Assembly: GCA_963804995.1 (NCBI GenBank)
Contig: CAWDSK010000006.1
Span: 1,600,001-1,664,000 of the forward strand
From: an uncultured Acidobacteriota bacterium
GTDB lineage: Bacteria; Acidobacteriota; Terriglobia; UBA7540
Length of the DNA stretch: 64,000 bases
Reading direction: 5' to 3'
Numbering within the stretch: position 1 is the stretch's first letter; every line of letters starts with the position of its first letter. Below are positions 1,073 to 50,430 of this stretch, in pieces. The position numbers were made by a program, and so were the translations under genes. The notes below the pieces were generated by a model. It saw only the letters and a program-made list of their open reading frames with translations. It made no database searches and was not told the DNA's origin.

Positions 1073-1804
1073 TTACGTCATATACCACCCGCCATCCACG
1101 TTGATCGTCTGCCCGGTGATGTAACCGTTGCCCGCCAGCAGCACGGCCACGTCCGCGACTTCCTCGACTTTGCCGAATCGCCCCACGGGGACAAGGTCCT
1201 GACGCGCGCGCGGATTCGCCGCCACCATCTGGGTGTAGACAAGCGCCGGCGCGATGGCATTCACGGTAATGCCCTCACCCGCCAGGAGCCCGGCATAGGA
1301 ATGTGTCAACCCCAGCATGCCAGCCTTGGACGCGGCGTAGTGCGGTCCCACCACTCCGCCCGTATGTGCCGCCACCGAGGAGATATTGATAATGCGGCCC
1401 CAGCGGCGCGCCCGCATTCCCGGCACTACTCGCTGCGTGACCAGGAAGGCGGACTTAAGATTCACCGCCAGGAGTTCGTCCCAGTCTTCTTCACGAATCT
1501 CTTCGAGCGCCTGGGGTCGCGTAATCCCGGCATTATTGACCAGGATTTCGATGGGCCCTAATCCCTGTTCGACGGCGTTCACCAGGCGCGCCACCTCCAC
1601 GGATTTCGAAACATCACCCTGCACAGCCAACGCCCGCCGTCCCGTGTACCGGAGGAGATCGCAGACGTCCTCGGCCTCCGTCTGATGCCGAAAGTAATTG
1701 ACGGCCACGTCCACGCCGGCTTTGCCCAGGGCTGCGGCAATGGCCCGGCCGATCCCCAGACTCGCGCCGGTCACCAGAGCAACTTTGCCTGTAAGGTCAT
1801 CCAT
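1073..1804 (-). CDS. SDR family oxidoreductase (3-oxoacyl-ACP reductase-like)
   Basis: TGASLGIG, NNAG, YAASK motifs. Confidence 0.9.
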   Translation of the reverse strand: MDDLTGKVALVTGASLGIGRAIAAALGKAGVDVAVNYFRHQTEAEDVCDLLRYTGRRALAVQGDVSKSVEVARLVNAVEQGLGPIEILVNNAGITRPQALEEIREEDWDELLAVNLKSAFLVTQRVVPGMRARRWGRIINISSVAAHTGGVVGPHYAASKAGMLGLTHSYAGLLAGEGITVNAIAPALVYTQMVAANPRARQDLVPVGRFGKVEEVADVAVLLAGNGYITGQTINVDGGWYMT

Positions 1805-1984
1805 GATGGTGGCGGGACCAACGTCCCGAAGTAGCGCCTGCTCAAATCACGGTGCAGATAATTGATTTTGTAACGCTGACCGGAACCTGTCCCGACCTCG
1901 GTCGGGAGGTCGGCACTGCATGACATGGCGATCATGCCGACCTAAAGGTTCTTGAATCCCTGGAATCCTCAAACGCCCACGTAA

Positions 1985-2054
1985 CCCCTCACCCGTCCCG
2001 CCCCGGCTGATGAGAACGCCGGTTGCGGTCCACCCTCTCCCCCCGGAGAGGGCT
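1985..2054 (+). repeat. REP-like ~70 bp repeat, copy 2
   Basis: Matches 828-897 in reverse orientation. Confidence 0.9.
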
Positions 2055-2102
2055 GTTAATCAAGGTGGGTGCTCATTCGGCATACGAAGAGCAAGTGTAG
2101 CG

Positions 2103-4015
2103 GTTGCGGTAGGGATACCGGTTACCCGGTACCCCCCGCACGGATCCGTACGTGCGCTGGTTAGCGCATACGGCTCTTATCTCGGATGTGTGGCGGCGAA
2201 CCGTTGGGATGGCCAAGGATGCACAACGTGCGGAGCAGGCAACCAGCAGGCCGCAAGCTTCCCCAGTCGGTCCCAGTTGAGGCGGTGGCGTTGACTGCGT
2301 TGACGCAGTTGTGTTCGCCACAGTCGGGTCAACCGTTCCCGAAAGATTCGCAGGCGGTTGAGGTTTCCCGGTACCGCGTGATAGTTGAAGTAGCCTTGCA
2401 CGACCGACCGGAGCCATTTACCCGTATCCGCGATGGGATCGTGCCGACGCTGCCGGAGTTGTTGCTTGAGTTCCTGCAACTTCCCCCGCAGGCGCTTGCT
2501 GATCGTCTTCCGCTTCACGGTAAATTGCCCCCTCCGGTTCTTCCCGCTGATATGCGTGAAGCCCAGAAAGTCGAACGTCTCCGGCTTACCTTCTCCTCTC
2601 CGTTTCCGGTAAAGTTCGGCAAACGGCCCGAACTCGATCCGGCGCGTTTTGTCAGGATGCAGTTCCAATCCAAACTTCCCCACCCGCTCCCGGAAATCCT
2701 CCAGAAAGCGGTCGGCTTCCGTCTGCGATTGGAATCCAAGGACCGTATCGTCGGCATACCGCACCACGACCACGTCTCCCCGGGCGTGCTTCTTGCGCCA
2801 CGCCTGCACCCACAGGTCAAAGACGTAGTGCAGATAGATATTCGCCAGCAGGGGCGAGACCACCGCCCCTTGTGGCGTACCCATCTCCGTCTCCGACCAT
2901 TCGCCTTCCTCCCTCACCCCGGCTTTCAGCCATTTCTGGATGAGCCGGAGAATCCGGGGGTCGGCGACGCGATGCTGCACGAACTTGAGCATCCATTCGT
3001 GGGATATCGAATCGAAAAATCCACGAATGTCCGCGTCAAGAACGTAGTTCACGTGCTTCACCGTGAGCGCGTACGAGAGCGCGTCCAGCGCTTGATGCTG
3101 GCTGCATCCCGGTCGAAAGCCATACGAGAAGCCCAGAAAGTCTTCCTCGTAAATCGCATTGAGGATGGTGACCACGGCCTGTTGGACGATCTTGTCCTCC
3201 AGTGCCGCAACCCCCAACGGACGTTGCCGCCCGTCGCCTTTCGGGATATACGCCCTTCGCGAGGGCTTCGCTCGGAATGCTCCGCGGTGGACCCGGCTGT
3301 GCAGATCGACGAGTCGACCTTCCAGCCCGCTTTCATACTCCTGCCACGTCATGCCGTCTACTCCCGGTGCAGCTTTTCGCTTCAAGGCGTAAAAGCTTTC
3401 CCGCAGCAGATCGACCGTTAAGTGGTGGAGCAAGGCCGTGAACTTCATCTCCCTGTGTTCCTTCGCGGCTTTCCGCACACCCGCGAGTCCCTGGGACACG
3501 CGTGCCCCGCTCTGTGTCGGGTGCGTGTTAGGCCAACGGGTGTTCTCCTTGATCAGCGGCCTTCCCTCCTCATTCTCCGCCAACGGCTTCCCGTCTTTGT
3601 TCAAATGATTCATCGGTACTGTTCCGCTGTCCGACTCCTCGAGAGCGTGCAGGCGGGCTGTACGGCCATCGCCTTTTCCCGCCGTCCGGCCACGATCTAC
3701 GGCGGCCGGCGCCTCCGAGGTCTCCCGGTTCTCGTGCAGAAAGTGTCTAGGCGTGTCTGGGGTCTACGACTACGCAGGACTGTGCCGGAACTCGCGTTGG
3801 CGTCCCGGCCTCATGTTGCCTTCCGTTTAGTCTGAAAACGTCGGCGTCCTGATTGGACATTTTCGAAGCTCAATACCCAGCCCACCTATTCCCCTGTTTA
3901 CGCTTCACCGTGCGCCTCACGACGCCCAGCGCAAAACTCGGGGCCGAGTGGATCGCTGCTCCTTCCTCGTGAGAAATTTTCATTCTCTGCTTTCTGCCGG
4001 TTTATCCCGGCGCAC
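2103..4015 (-). mobile_element. Group II intron, full length, ~1.9 kb
   Basis: 5' end GTGCGCCGGGATAAACC at 4015; domain V/VI GAGCCGTATGCG...GCACGTACGGATCCGTGCGGGG and terminal ...CCGCAAC at 2103; encodes an RT/maturase. Confidence 0.93.
2177..3613 (-). CDS. ltrA: Group II intron reverse transcriptase/maturase without an endonuclease domain
   Basis: IPKGDGRQRPLG, SYGFRP, GTPQGAVVSPLLANIYL, YADD, FDFLGF, maturase X domain (GYFNYH). Confidence 0.95.
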   Translation of the reverse strand: MNHLNKDGKPLAENEEGRPLIKENTRWPNTHPTQSGARVSQGLAGVRKAAKEHREMKFTALLHHLTVDLLRESFYALKRKAAPGVDGMTWQEYESGLEGRLVDLHSRVHRGAFRAKPSRRAYIPKGDGRQRPLGVAALEDKIVQQAVVTILNAIYEEDFLGFSYGFRPGCSQHQALDALSYALTVKHVNYVLDADIRGFFDSISHEWMLKFVQHRVADPRILRLIQKWLKAGVREEGEWSETEMGTPQGAVVSPLLANIYLHYVFDLWVQAWRKKHARGDVVVVRYADDTVLGFQSQTEADRFLEDFRERVGKFGLELHPDKTRRIEFGPFAELYRKRRGEGKPETFDFLGFTHISGKNRRGQFTVKRKTISKRLRGKLQELKQQLRQRRHDPIADTGKWLRSVVQGYFNYHAVPGNLNRLRIFRERLTRLWRTQLRQRSQRHRLNWDRLGKLAACWLPAPHVVHPWPSQRFAATHPR

Positions 4016-4140
4016 CAGACCTCCGCTTTTGAGGTCTGCAGTTCTTCATTAGACTCGCGCCACTGAATCCGAGGCCAGCTCCGCACGTTGAGATTTCGCG
4101 TGAAGAGCCGCGGACCTCAACAGCGGAGGTCCACGCTACA
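4016..4140. repeat. Inverted doublet of a GTAG-type REP (TGAAGA.C.GC.GACC...GGTC..CGCTACA); the left unit is split by the intron
   Basis: Intact units at 4101-4140, 19746-19784 and 49913-49951; the left unit rejoins as 4048-4016 plus 2102-2096. Confidence 0.8.
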
Positions 4141-4156
4141 AGTCCTCTACAAATTC

Positions 4157-5506
4157 TCAAGCCCCGAAGTTGAGCCACAACCGCACGTCGCGAACATTGT
4201 TATCCGTGAATCCGGTATCCAGCGTGTCGCCCAAGGTGCGGAAAAACGAATAGGAATCGCTTGCGGCATGGTAGGCGGCAGCGTCGAGACCCAGAGCCTG
4301 CGCGCGCGAGGTGGTGTTGCCGTCGGCCACCGCGCCGCTGGTGGGACTGTTGCCGTCGCGCCCGTCGGTGCCAGCGCTCAGGACGACGCGATGCTGTCCC
4401 GCAATTCTTTGCGCAGCGTAAAGCACAAAAGCCTGGTTGCGCCCCCCCACCCCCAGGCCCGTCACCGGGCAGGTAACCTCTCCGCCGATCACCAGGCACA
4501 CGGGCTGGCCCCGTTGCGCCTTGGAAAGCGTGTCAAGTGCGGCCAGGTTTGAGTGCACCACCTGCTGGTAGTCGGCGTCCCAAATACCTCGGTCGAGCTC
4601 CGCGGTAAACCCGAGCTTTTCCGCAGCCGTCAGGGCGGCGCCCACCGCATCGTGGTTCGATAGCAGGCAGAAGTATTGCGAGTTCTCAAAGCGCGCCTCG
4701 CCGGGCTTGGGAGTCTCCAGCAGTTCCCGGCGCTCAAAGAATTTGCGAACGCTTGTGGGGAATTGCCGCACCAGGTTGTTGTCAACTGCCAATTCGTACG
4801 TCTCTTCCGCCGTGGATTCATCGGGCATAGTGGGGCCGGAAGCGACCATCGACGGCAGGTCGTCGGGGACGTTGGAAATATAGATGGTGAGTTGCTGCGC
4901 CGGATGCGCCCGCGCGCCCAGCCTTCCGCCCTTGACCGCCGATAGGTGCTTGCGCAGCACATTGATCTTCTCGATGGGGAGGTGCGAGGTCACCAGCACG
5001 CGGTTGAATTCGATAAGGTCGGCAAGCGTGATGCTGGCGTCAATGGGTTGCGCAAAAAGCGCGGAGCCTCCACCAGAGACGAGGAAGATGACCGCATCGT
5101 CGCGGGTCAGATTGGTGACCAGATCGAGCGCCGCCTGCGCGCCATCCAGGCTGCTGTGGGTGGGATAGGGATGGCCGCCCACGAAATAATGGAAGCTATC
5201 GAGCTTCGTCGCTTTTTCCGCCGGCCCTACTGCCACGCCCGCCTGGATGCGTCCGTCCAGAATTTCGTCCAGCACGGCAGCCATGCGGTTGGCGGCCTTG
5301 CCAAACGCCACCACGCGCGGAGGCCGCGGCAGGGGAAGCGAAATTCCATTGGCCAGCAGCGTGTTGCCCTCGAACTTCAGCTTCGCCAGCATGGCGTTGC
5401 GCACGTCGATGGTCGCCATGGTCTCATGGAAAATCTGGCGCGCCAGTTGCTTCCCCTGGGCATAGGGAAGCTTCATGAGGGCTGCGGATTGGGCGGGGTT
5501 GGTCAT
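4157..5506 (-). CDS. Glycerate kinase type 2 (MOFRL/DUF4147, TtuD-like)
   Basis: FGKAA, SGGGSAL, RKHLSAVKGGRL, GGRNQ, GTDGRDG, TDNNVRD. Confidence 0.9.
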   Translation of the reverse strand: MTNPAQSAALMKLPYAQGKQLARQIFHETMATIDVRNAMLAKLKFEGNTLLANGISLPLPRPPRVVAFGKAANRMAAVLDEILDGRIQAGVAVGPAEKATKLDSFHYFVGGHPYPTHSSLDGAQAALDLVTNLTRDDAVIFLVSGGGSALFAQPIDASITLADLIEFNRVLVTSHLPIEKINVLRKHLSAVKGGRLGARAHPAQQLTIYISNVPDDLPSMVASGPTMPDESTAEETYELAVDNNLVRQFPTSVRKFFERRELLETPKPGEARFENSQYFCLLSNHDAVGAALTAAEKLGFTAELDRGIWDADYQQVVHSNLAALDTLSKAQRGQPVCLVIGGEVTCPVTGLGVGGRNQAFVLYAAQRIAGQHRVVLSAGTDGRDGNSPTSGAVADGNTTSRAQALGLDAAAYHAASDSYSFFRTLGDTLDTGFTDNNVRDVRLWLNFGA

Positions 5507-17093: not shown

Positions 17094-17645
17094 ATGAGAG
17101 ATTGGCCACACAGTCCGGCGCATCGTTTTACGCCCGGGGGAACCTGCATGGTGACGGCGGGAACGTACCTCAAAGCGCCTTTCTTCCGAGGCGCGGACCG
17201 ATTGGAATACCTTAGCGGGATGCTCCTGGATCTTGCCGAAAAATACTTATGGCAGCTACAGGCCTGGGCGGTCTTTCCCAACCATTATCACTTCGTCGCC
17301 GTATCCCCGCCGCAGGGCGCGTCGCTCGTACAACTTACCCGGCATCTTCACGGACTTACCGCGATCGAAACCAATCGCCGGGACAACGCGGTGGGGCGTC
17401 ACGTTTGGTATCAATATTGGGATAAGGAATTGACCTTTCAGCGGTCCTACCTTGCACGCCTGAGTTACGTGCATAAGAACGCGGTTCATCACGGCCTGGT
17501 GCGGGAACCGTCTCTCTATCCCTGGTGCTCGGCGGGTTGGTTCCAGCGCGAGGCGGCAACGTCCTTTTACAAAACCGTGGTGGGGATGAAGACTGATCAA
17601 GTTCAGGTGACGGATGATTACACGGTCGACATCTCAGATATCTGA
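17094..17645 (+). CDS. REP-associated tyrosine transposase (RAYT, Y1/HUH)
   Basis: HUH motif NHYHF, VWYQYWD, catalytic YVHKN, YPWCSA; flanked by REP doublets. Confidence 0.9.
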   Translation: MRDWPHSPAHRFTPGGTCMVTAGTYLKAPFFRGADRLEYLSGMLLDLAEKYLWQLQAWAVFPNHYHFVAVSPPQGASLVQLTRHLHGLTAIETNRRDNAVGRHVWYQYWDKELTFQRSYLARLSYVHKNAVHHGLVREPSLYPWCSAGWFQREAATSFYKTVVGMKTDQVQVTDDYTVDISDI

Positions 17646-19623: not shown

Positions 19624-19876
19624 TTTCCTCGTAGCCGATGTATTATGCGCCACCAGGTGGAAGCACCAGGGTTTCCCGAATGTATCGGCGCAAAGAAGGA
19701 GTCGTGACGCAGCCGCCCGTGTGGGAGATTTGGGCATTTACCACATGAAGAACCGCGGACCCCAAAAACGGGGGACCGCGCTACAACGTATTTGCACGCT
19801 GGTCAGCCTGCTGATTTTTTGGGGGTGGGGTTGCGACGCCACGCAGGCGATCACAGCCTAATCCGTCGACAACGGG

Positions 19877-49744: not shown

Positions 49745-49947
49745 CAGCCCCGACAGGAGTTGTGGGAGTAGCGCCGAATGGCATTCGGCGCGGCAAGTGT
49801 AGCGCCCCGAGGCATCGGGGTGGTTCTACCTGTGCCATTTGAGCGAACGTACCGTCGTGAAGAAGCAGGCGTGGCACGGCCACCCGAATTTGAGGTTTGT
49901 GGTTTTTCCAAATGAAGAGCCGCGGACCCCAAAAACGGGGGTCCGCG

Positions 49948-50430
49948 CTACGGTCGCTGTTCCGCAAGTTTACGGAGGGCATCGCCCGCCACCCGCATGG
50001 TGAGCCACTCCTTCATCACTTTCGCACCCAGCGATTCGTAAAACTCAATGGCTGGCGTGTTCCAGTCGAGCACCTGCCACTGATAGCGCCCGCAACCTTT
50101 CTCGGCCGCCAGCCTCGCCAGGTGTACAAGCAGCGCCTTGCCAATCCCTTTCTTCCGATACTGCGGCCGCACGAACAGGTCTTCCAGATAGAGTCCCGCC
50201 TTCCCCTGCCACGTGGAATAGTTGAAGAACCACAACGCAAAGCCCGCCGGCTGGCCGTCCCACTCAGCAATCTCCACGTAAAAGCGTGGCTCTCCGGAAA
50301 ACCCATCGCGCCTTAGATCCGCCGGTGTCGCCACGGCTGCTTCGGGCGCGCGCTCGTACTCGGCCAGCTCGCGGATAAATTCCAGGATCAGGGGAATATC
50401 GTCAGGGGTTGCTTTGCGGATGTTCAGCAT
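49948..50430 (-). CDS. GNAT N-acetyltransferase (SSAT-like)
   Basis: RELAEYE, YSTWQG, YLEDLFV, VLDWNTPAIEFY. Confidence 0.9.
   Translation of the reverse strand: MLNIRKATPDDIPLILEFIRELAEYERAPEAAVATPADLRRDGFSGEPRFYVEIAEWDGQPAGFALWFFNYSTWQGKAGLYLEDLFVRPQYRKKGIGKALLVHLARLAAEKGCGRYQWQVLDWNTPAIEFYESLGAKVMKEWLTMRVAGDALRKLAEQRP

Follow-up and report, generated by a model that had tools for sequence, protein, structure and literature searches.

Introduction

Bacterial group II introns have been described with three target specificities, namely homing sites, terminator motifs and attC sites (2015 review; PMC4424553). Here we characterise a group II intron that lies within a repetitive extragenic palindromic (REP) sequence of the GTAG type, in a 64,000-nt stretch of DNA from an uncultured Acidobacteriota bacterium (hereafter the window; C6:1600001-1664000 of a 7.55-Mb genome in nine contigs, which are numbered with the prefix C). 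Among described systems, RmInt1 and RmInt2 of Sinorhizobium meliloti, which belong to class D and subgroup IIB3, are endonuclease-less too, and home into multicopy, dispensable DNA through pairing of exon-binding sites (EBS) in the intron with intron-binding sites (IBS) in the exons. Their targets are described as ISRm2011-2 and the ends of ISRm17, with preference for the lagging-strand template (PMC5894124; PMC8914252).

Introns of class C (IIC), at terminators or attC sites, are likewise endonuclease-less and occupy intergenic DNA hairpins at many sites per genome, reading a 3-4 nt IBS1 that follows the stem, without EBS2 (PMC7923331; PMC4424553). Class E is represented on the S. meliloti GR4 plasmid pRmeGR4b by a disrupted intron, S.me.I4, accompanied by one RmInt1 of class D (PMC5894124), and by the fragments H.ha.F1 and H.ha.F2, which lie beside attC-like hairpins on the leading strand, and for which a structural role has been speculated (PMC7923331). 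REPs are themselves known landing sites for the insertion sequences IS1397, ISPpu9, ISPpu10 and ISPa11, with 100% association for several of these; a group II intron of Pseudomonas putida KT2440 is REP-associated in only two of its nine copies (Tobes and Pareja 2006, PMC1525189). A full-text literature search, whose coverage excludes most subscription journals, returned no description of a REP-homing group II intron of class E or any other class.

An initial annotation of the locus, made from the window, had suggested that an endonuclease-less intron may use a multicopy REP as a renewable target, by analogy with IIC introns at terminators and attC sites, and had cautioned that one copy cannot establish specificity. 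On comparing sequences across the genome and its relatives, we consider it highly probable that this class E intron, which is present as 40 near-identical copies between GGTCTG and CGC of GTAG-type REPs, retrohomes by pairing of EBS1, EBS2 and EBS3 with the lagging-strand template.

Results

Insertion at a single position in two REP families

A blastn search of the genome recovered 40 copies of the intron at 99.6% identity or above, of which 38 are full length and two are cut by contig ends. The median pairwise difference among copies is 3 nt, and the 478-aa open reading frame (ORF) is intact in 37 of the 38 full copies, the remaining one carrying a 1-nt insertion. Thirty-nine copies retain the 5' end and one of these has only 3 nt of flank, leaving 38 readable 5' junctions, all of which follow [A/G]GTC[C/T]G (GGTCTG in 33, GGTCCG in four and AGTCTG in one). 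The 3' flanks start with CGC in 39 of 39 cases (CGCTAC 24, CGCCAG 13, CGCCAT 1, CGCCAA 1), and flanks beyond the repeat unit differ on both sides for most copies. The insertion position is shared by two different REP families, which read in target sense GAAGAACCGCAGACCTC-N7-GGAGGTCTG^CGCTAC (family 1) and ATCGCAGACCCC-N7-GGGGTCTG^CGCCAGCC (family 2), where the caret marks the insertion point. A strict hairpin test was passed by 36 of the 38 sites, the failures (C6:834341 and C6:1170276) being degenerate family-2 hairpins.

Alignment of these exon junctions settles the single-copy caveat of the initial annotation, and bears out its suggestion of a multicopy REP as renewable target: every readable junction falls at the same REP position, and a sister genome holds a retargeted version of the intron (see below). 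Insertion at unrelated, non-hairpin sites, which would have spoken against that suggestion, was seen at none of the 38 readable junctions in this genome, but the expectation of a hairpin does not carry over to distant relatives, in whose targets no consistent hairpin was found.

The assembly breaks within or at an intron copy at four contig ends (the starts of C2 and C7 and the ends of C6 and C9), and 40 may thus be an underestimate of the copy number. Tandem copies were also observed, at C6:2170486 with C6:2172663 and at C7:1 with C7:1974, as well as at loci L051 and L004 in other genomes. Their members either abut directly or share flanks and are separated by 70 nt to 2.2 kb, an arrangement that suggests REP arrays that were filled successively, or local duplication.

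Boundaries and target at the locus

On the minus strand the locus reads ...TGAAGAACTGCAGACCTCAAAAGCGGAGGTCTG, then the intron (GTGCGCCGGG ... CCCTACCGCAAC), then CGCTACA, and uninterrupted sites elsewhere in the genome read GGAGGTCTGCGCTAC (features are collected in Table 1). The intron ends are unambiguous because empty REP target sites read GGTCTGCGCTAC, and they cannot be shifted, since the flanking bases differ at each junction. Removal of the intron as delimited by the initial annotation restores a GTAG-type REP, as it had claimed. The three REP relatives that it listed in the window are also present, the one at 19746-19784 with a damaged 3' arm. The consensus REP stem comprises 10 bp (CGCAGACCTC paired with GAGGTCTGCG), and in the window copy a T.G wobble forms the outermost of these. 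The insertion point, GGTCTG^CG, lies in the 3' arm, 2 bp in from the base of the stem, and thus not at the 3' base itself, where the initial annotation had placed it.

Table 1. Coordinates of the intron, its guide and catalytic elements, and REP sequences in the window
Feature	Position	Strand	Description
Group II intron	2103..4015	-	1913 nt, 5' GTGCG ... CCGCAAC 3'; ends set against empty REP sites and the 39 other copies
Intron-encoded protein (IEP)	2177..3613	-	478 aa; reverse transcriptase and maturase region; YADD (RYADDTV) present
EBS1	3829..3834	-	CAGACU, intron positions 182-187, in a hairpin loop; pairs with exon -1..-6 (GGTCTG)
EBS2 (short)	3857..3859	-	UGU, intron positions 157-159; predicted pairing with exon -11..-9 (GCG here) in the REP loop
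EBS3	3767..3767	-	G249; pairs with first 3' exon base (C)
Domain V	2143..2176	-	34 nt, directly after the IEP stop codon; from alignment and fold
Domain VI	2103..2140	-	Bulged A at 2110, 7 nt before the 3' end; from fold
Split target REP, 5' part	4016..4047	-	5' arm 4040-4031; loop 4030-4024 (IBS2 4026-4024); 3' arm with IBS1 4021-4016
Split target REP, 3' part	2097..2102	-	CG closes the stem; CGCTAC is the complement of the GTAGCG head
Partner REP, inverted	4101..4140	-	GTAGCGTGGACCTCCGCTGTTGAGGTCCGCGG...; REPIN-like doublet with the split REP, about 60 nt apart
Empty REP, same family	49913..49951	+	GGTCCG variant; target orientation on +, the C-rich strand of the contig
Empty degenerate REP, same family	19746..19784	+	3' arm damaged (GGGGGACCG)

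The REPs of the window are not attributable to chance, as the stem pattern has three matches against 0.08 expected, and the GTAG-REP pattern two against 0.00. Family 1, read on the opposite strand, is a GTAG-type REP of the form GTAGCG-CAGACCTC-loop7-GAGGTCTG-CGG, and the intron occupies the outer REP of an inverted doublet, cutting the GTAG head off from the REP hairpin. Genome-wide, 263 target-oriented REP sites match the census pattern. There are 14 Y1_Tnp matches, and two of these, both scoring weakly, mark genes resembling REP-associated tyrosine transposases (RAYTs) that adjoin the targeted families. The gene at C5:58461 (31 bits) stands between a preceding intron copy and four family-1 REPs that come after it, and the gene at C6:722534 (36 bits) separates an intron copy from a family-2 REP. 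With a head and palindrome, many dispersed intergenic copies, inverted doublets and adjoining RAYT-like genes, the target is a true GTAG-type REP/REPIN system (REPIN, REP doublet forming hairpins).

Other RAYT-like genes are flanked by REP families that lack this intron. At least three further families (GTAGCGCAGAGTGTG..., CTGGCGCAGAGCGAGC... and GTAGCGGCGGGTTTACCCCGCC) were observed, each beside its own Y1 transposase gene (C2:304854, C2:467514, C3:777593 and C6:1198811), and none holds a full-length copy of this intron. Within the window, positions 17199-17453 (+) give a weak Y1_Tnp match (23.7 bits; RAYT or IS200-like), with no family 1 or 2 REP adjoining.

Strand bias and occupancy

Six contigs (C3, C4, C5, C6, C8 and C9) have one-directional GC skew, and 30 of the 31 intron copies on them have their sense strand on the G-rich strand. 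A census of targets by strand counted 27 occupied sites to 1, and 78 empty sites to 116 (Fisher p 6.7e-9). The direction of skew agrees with the orientation of the 16S gene and with a weak gene-strand bias, and we infer that the G-rich strand is the lagging-strand template, hereafter the permissive strand.

Occupancy also depends on IBS1. Among REP sites on the permissive strand, those with GGTCTG are occupied in 22 cases and empty in 23, those with GGTCCG, which makes an A.C mismatch with EBS1, are occupied in four and empty in 45 (p 1.7e-5 for the comparison with GGTCTG), and those with AGTCTG are occupied in one and empty in ten. On the other strand, a single GGTCTG site is occupied and 66 are empty. 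About half of the perfectly matched target sites on the permissive strand are therefore filled.

Covariation of guides with exons

A search of public genomes gave 565 relatives, from which we retained 79 loci (designated by the prefix L), nearly all from Acidobacteriota or Terriglobia, and intron ends were assigned in all of them. The covariation set comprises 51 introns, namely the intron of the window and 50 loci of normal length whose two ends align well and whose 5' flank extends to 40 nt or more; the 29 loci left aside have contig-end cuts, nested or tandem copies, or variant 5' ends. Across the set, EBS1 and exon positions -1 to -6 are paired in 94-100% of sequences, with four to six pair types per position, and EBS3 is paired with position +1 in 96%, with five pair types (for example U with A, C with G, and A with U). 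When three adjacent registers are allowed, which leaves an uncertainty of 1 nt in its placement, EBS2 is complementary to the exon in 32 of the 38 distinct combinations of intron and site. The combinations in other lineages include GAU/AUC, CAU/AUG, CGU/ACG and CAC/GUG (EBS2/IBS2). In 2000 shuffles the count of complementary cases averaged 13 and never exceeded 22; as the sequences are related, this overstates significance, and more weight attaches to the number of pair types. Covariation with the exons is shown for EBS1 and EBS3, and more weakly for EBS2, and the pairing with the REP that had been put forward for checking is upheld for all three in these terms.

In the target, IBS1 is the 3' arm of the REP stem and IBS3 the next stem base, and IBS2 is located in the loop, where it reads GCG in family 1 and, for the most part, ACA or ACG in family 2. 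The EBS1, EBS2 and EBS3 motifs are identical in all copies in the genome; one copy differs from the rest at a single place immediately upstream of the EBS2 triplet.

The intron, its protein and its class

The element is a group II intron, as it has conserved ends (5' GUGYG, 3' AY), a domain V, a domain VI with a bulged A, and an IEP. Rfam model RF02005 (group-II-D1D4-6) matches at 3980-3760(-) with 170 bits (E 1.9e-49; cut-off 49), and comparison of relatives reveals compensatory changes in domains V and VI. In the catalytic triad of domain V, the middle base stands opposite a purine, the combination being G.A in the lineage of the window and A.G in most relatives, a reciprocal swap in place of the usual G.U. 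RVT_1 is the sole Pfam match to the IEP at E below 0.001 (residues 123-353, with 125 residues beyond), and no endonuclease domain was found in the Pfam profile search. The IEP scores 343 bits against NCBIfam TIGR04416, the group II intron reverse transcriptase/maturase (cut-off 300). Its relatives of solved structure in the PDB are group II intron reverse transcriptases, T.el4h being the best (E 7.7e-41) and IIC enzymes close (about 1e-39).

We assign the intron to class E because, of the two intron proteins on pRmeGR4b, its IEP is closer to the disrupted one (57% identity) than to the 419-aa ltrA (35%), following the labels given for these two in PMC5894124; judged by this similarity to one labelled member rather than by a reference tree, it is a class E, IIB-like element. 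Exon recognition is of the IIB type, with EBS1, an unusually short EBS2 of 3 nt, and EBS3 contacting position +1. The analogy with IIC and attC introns drawn in the initial annotation accordingly fails, in that the element is class E and IIB-like, the site is read by EBS1, EBS2 and EBS3, and IBS1 lies inside the stem and not after it.

The intron is situated between two co-oriented genes, encoding a DUF4147/MOFRL protein upstream and a short-chain dehydrogenase downstream. Just downstream of it, at about 1985-2063, is a palindromic repeat (CCCTCTCCGGGGGGAGAGGG... followed by a G-rich tail), which has other copies in the genome and very high contig depth in peat and sediment metagenomes. A complete 16S rRNA gene is present at 61063-62601 (-) of the window (1552 bits), and its orientation agrees with the G-rich strand of the contig.

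Relatives and their targets

Protein identity is highest, at 92-93%, with L009 and L010, in which EBS1 is CGGACU and EBS2 is CGU, and which lie behind CGGACCCC-loop-GGGGGTCCG^CGCTAC. In the sister genome, six of six copies of this intron lie behind CGGACCCC...GGGG(T)CCG REP hairpins, which indicates the same intron with its EBS1 changed to match the REP variant of its own host. L002, an 83% relative, is inserted after GCAGACTTT...AAAGTCTG and followed by CGCTAC. Side lineages with EBS1 CAGAGC adjoin CTGGCG-CAGAGC...GCTCTG REPs, at L119 in the sister genome and at C1:441116 in this one. The latter (on the minus strand) was considered as a multi-copy REP-homing intron and rejected, as there is only one truncated copy, interrupted by another repeat. 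Several introns begin with GAGCG, AAGCG or TAGCG instead of GTGCG (C1:441116, L119, L001, L012, L014, L019, L051 and L111-L116), and some introns with variant 5' ends have EBS1 CAGAGC or CAGACU and lie behind other REP-like hairpins.

At 73-78% identity, relatives in two Terriglobia genomes (L091-L102) target a dispersed intergenic motif of about 35 nt, ...CAGTTGACGATAAATCGCCAATGCA^CTCATTGAC, which is present in six and 11 uninterrupted copies in the two genomes, against none for a control pattern. No consistent hairpin was found in the targets of these relatives (z +0.6 to -4.3), and because target structures are inconsistent among homologs, we do not hold the hairpin to be a class-wide feature. 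That the targets of distant homologs might be the start of a small conserved gene was considered and rejected, as no consistent ORF was found.

Discussion

Taken together, the junctions, guide covariation and strand bias suggest a route by which the intron would multiply. The intron RNA-protein particle may reverse-splice into the REP strand ...CGCAGACCYC-loop-GRGGTCTG^CGCYA when this is exposed at the replication fork, after which the nascent lagging strand would prime cDNA synthesis, as described for RmInt1. Orientation is presumably set by further contacts with the loop (A-15, A-14 and C-10) and/or with positions +3 to +5, probably made by the protein; these bases are common to both used families and absent from the reverse orientation. 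The REP may serve as a high-copy, intergenic and probably harmless sequence, and not for its folding. A folded hairpin would need opening because IBS1 is inside the stem, and IBS2, being located in the loop, could be the entry point. Since insertion separates the GTAG head from the hairpin, each event probably disables that REP for the RAYT transposase.

Several observations weigh against this proposal, or limit it. The ten base pairs of the guides are necessary but not sufficient, and further determinants exist: on the permissive strand, insertions are absent from all 463 GGTCTG^C sites outside hairpins, and from all 66 REP hairpins in which the same stem is reversed or otherwise oriented. 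Conversely, four copies reside at sites with an A.C mismatch to EBS1, and in the sister genome four of the six copies have an imperfect IBS1 (GGGCCG or GGCCCG), which may reflect assembly errors. EBS2 comprises only 3 nt and needs two G.U pairs with family 1, and the strength of IBS2 shows only a trend with occupancy (19/34 versus 3/11, p 0.17). The G-rich strand is taken as the leading strand from the general behaviour of GC skew, and not from a mapped origin, just as the class assignment depends on one labelled member. Among the 37 copies of 1913 nt, differences are confined to a few shared positions (58, 373, 732, 858, 910, 1657 and 1704) in mixed combinations, which could stem from gene conversion between copies, or from mixing of repeats by the assembler. 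Lastly, metagenome contigs over positions 1700-4400 of the window, from three DNA runs and one RNA run, are short, derive from mixed relatives, and are too fragmented to bridge an empty site or ligated exons.

The alternative that survives best, although we regard it as improbable, is structure-guided targeting of the kind practised by IIC introns, in which the fold of the REP hairpin in single-stranded DNA would be what the particle recognises, leaving to base pairing no more than fine adjustment of the cut position. The occupied sites are indeed all hairpins (counting the two degenerate ones), the unoccupied GGTCTG^C sites outside hairpins point the same way, and the REP folds as a single strand into a stable hairpin (about -12 kcal/mol; z -3.5 to -5.4); there is also the precedent, speculative in its source, of class E fragments beside attC-like hairpins (PMC7923331). 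Against this, the unused reverse-orientation REPs present the same stem with both IBS1 and IBS3, and folding hides IBS1 inside the stem, where the IIC stem as described lies upstream of a 3-4 nt IBS1 (PMC7923331). Further, EBS1 is 6 nt long and EBS2 covaries with the target, the protein groups by similarity with class E and not class C, and the targets of the 73-78% relatives do without a consistent hairpin. We found no evidence for recognition of hairpin shape in the use of same-stem reverse REPs or in the targets of distant relatives. Because IBS1 is buried, reverse hairpins are unused and relatives' targets lack a consistent hairpin, the REP is most likely used as sequence rather than as fold; a role for the fold, for example with the loop as a toehold for EBS2, is possible.

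Passive spread is far less credible. It would require a single entry into a REP, followed by copying of the intron as a passenger of RAYT-driven REP/REPIN mobilisation or of segmental duplications, for which one may cite the intron copies in REPs that adjoin both RAYT-like genes, and the copies that share longer flanks or lie in tandem (C6:2170486 with C6:2172663; C7:1 with C7:1974). Neither process would give the 30/31 strand bias or the need for a perfect IBS1, and the differing flanks on both sides of most copies, and the same insertion position in two different REP families, are equally hard to accommodate; separation of the GTAG head from the hairpin should, moreover, hinder the action of RAYT on that REP. 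Least plausible of all is an artefact in which the assembler placed a few real copies at many REPs, an idea encouraged by the four contig ends at intron copies and by the net-like mixing of polymorphisms, but opposed by 38 complete copies bracketed by differing flanks on both sides, by the same arrangement in the independent sister genome, and by a strand bias that an assembler would not create.

If retrohoming by guide pairing is accepted, a broader conjecture may be entertained, which we regard as tentative and on balance doubtful. The Terriglobia class E lineage might be a dedicated parasite of the REP-RAYT system, in which the EBS1 loop (CAGAC, CGGAC, and CAGAGC in the side lineage) tracks the REP of the host, the REP loop serves as a toehold for opening the stem at the fork, and each REP entered is inactivated by separation of its GTAG head, such that the intron as hyperparasite and the REPIN population as its host would co-evolve within one genome.

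Comparison with known systems places the intron close to the S. meliloti S.me.I4 type, with which its IEP shares 57-58% identity from end to end, the C-terminal part included. A complete S. meliloti relative (58% over residues 5-478; 1908 nt) likewise has a GTGCG start and a ...CCCTACCGCGAA end. The intron of the window resembles this class E relative in its IIB-like exon recognition and in that no endonuclease domain was found; the S. meliloti element occupies a non-REP site, whereas that of the window is in a REP. The strand bias seen here is the bias described for RmInt1 (PMC8914252; PMC5894124). RmInt1 and RmInt2 differ from the present intron in class (D, at 35% protein identity) and in targeting an insertion sequence gene or its ends, unlike a REP hairpin of 35-40 nt that exists in hundreds of copies. 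In contrast to IIC introns, the intron has a 6-nt IBS1 inside the stem and a covarying EBS2, and uses one orientation of the hairpin. The REP is a preferred landing site for IS1397, ISPpu9, ISPpu10 and ISPa11 too, but these are protein-guided DNA transposons, whereas here the guide would be RNA. Finally, H.ha.F1 and H.ha.F2 resemble the present case as class E or IIB introns adjoining a DNA hairpin, and raise the same question of structure; as presented in their source, these comprise two fragments, both broken, for which neither an EBS match nor a series of copies is shown, whereas here there are 40 intact copies with covarying guides.

Conclusion

The mechanism proposed here, base-pairing and replication-coupled retrohoming into multicopy, dispensable DNA, is a known one; it is the kind of target that is new, and the readout within a single genome that is unusually clear. 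A retroelement whose RNA guides are tuned to REPs, and which has filled about half of its perfect permissive sites, would constitute a natural case of high copy number with probably little harm to genes. The genome offers a clean readout of the rules of endonuclease-less retrohoming, in terms of strand, single mismatches and orientation, and the guides of this compact class E intron are open to retargeting studies. For the bacterium and its relatives, the intron would represent a third player in the population dynamics of REPINs and RAYTs.

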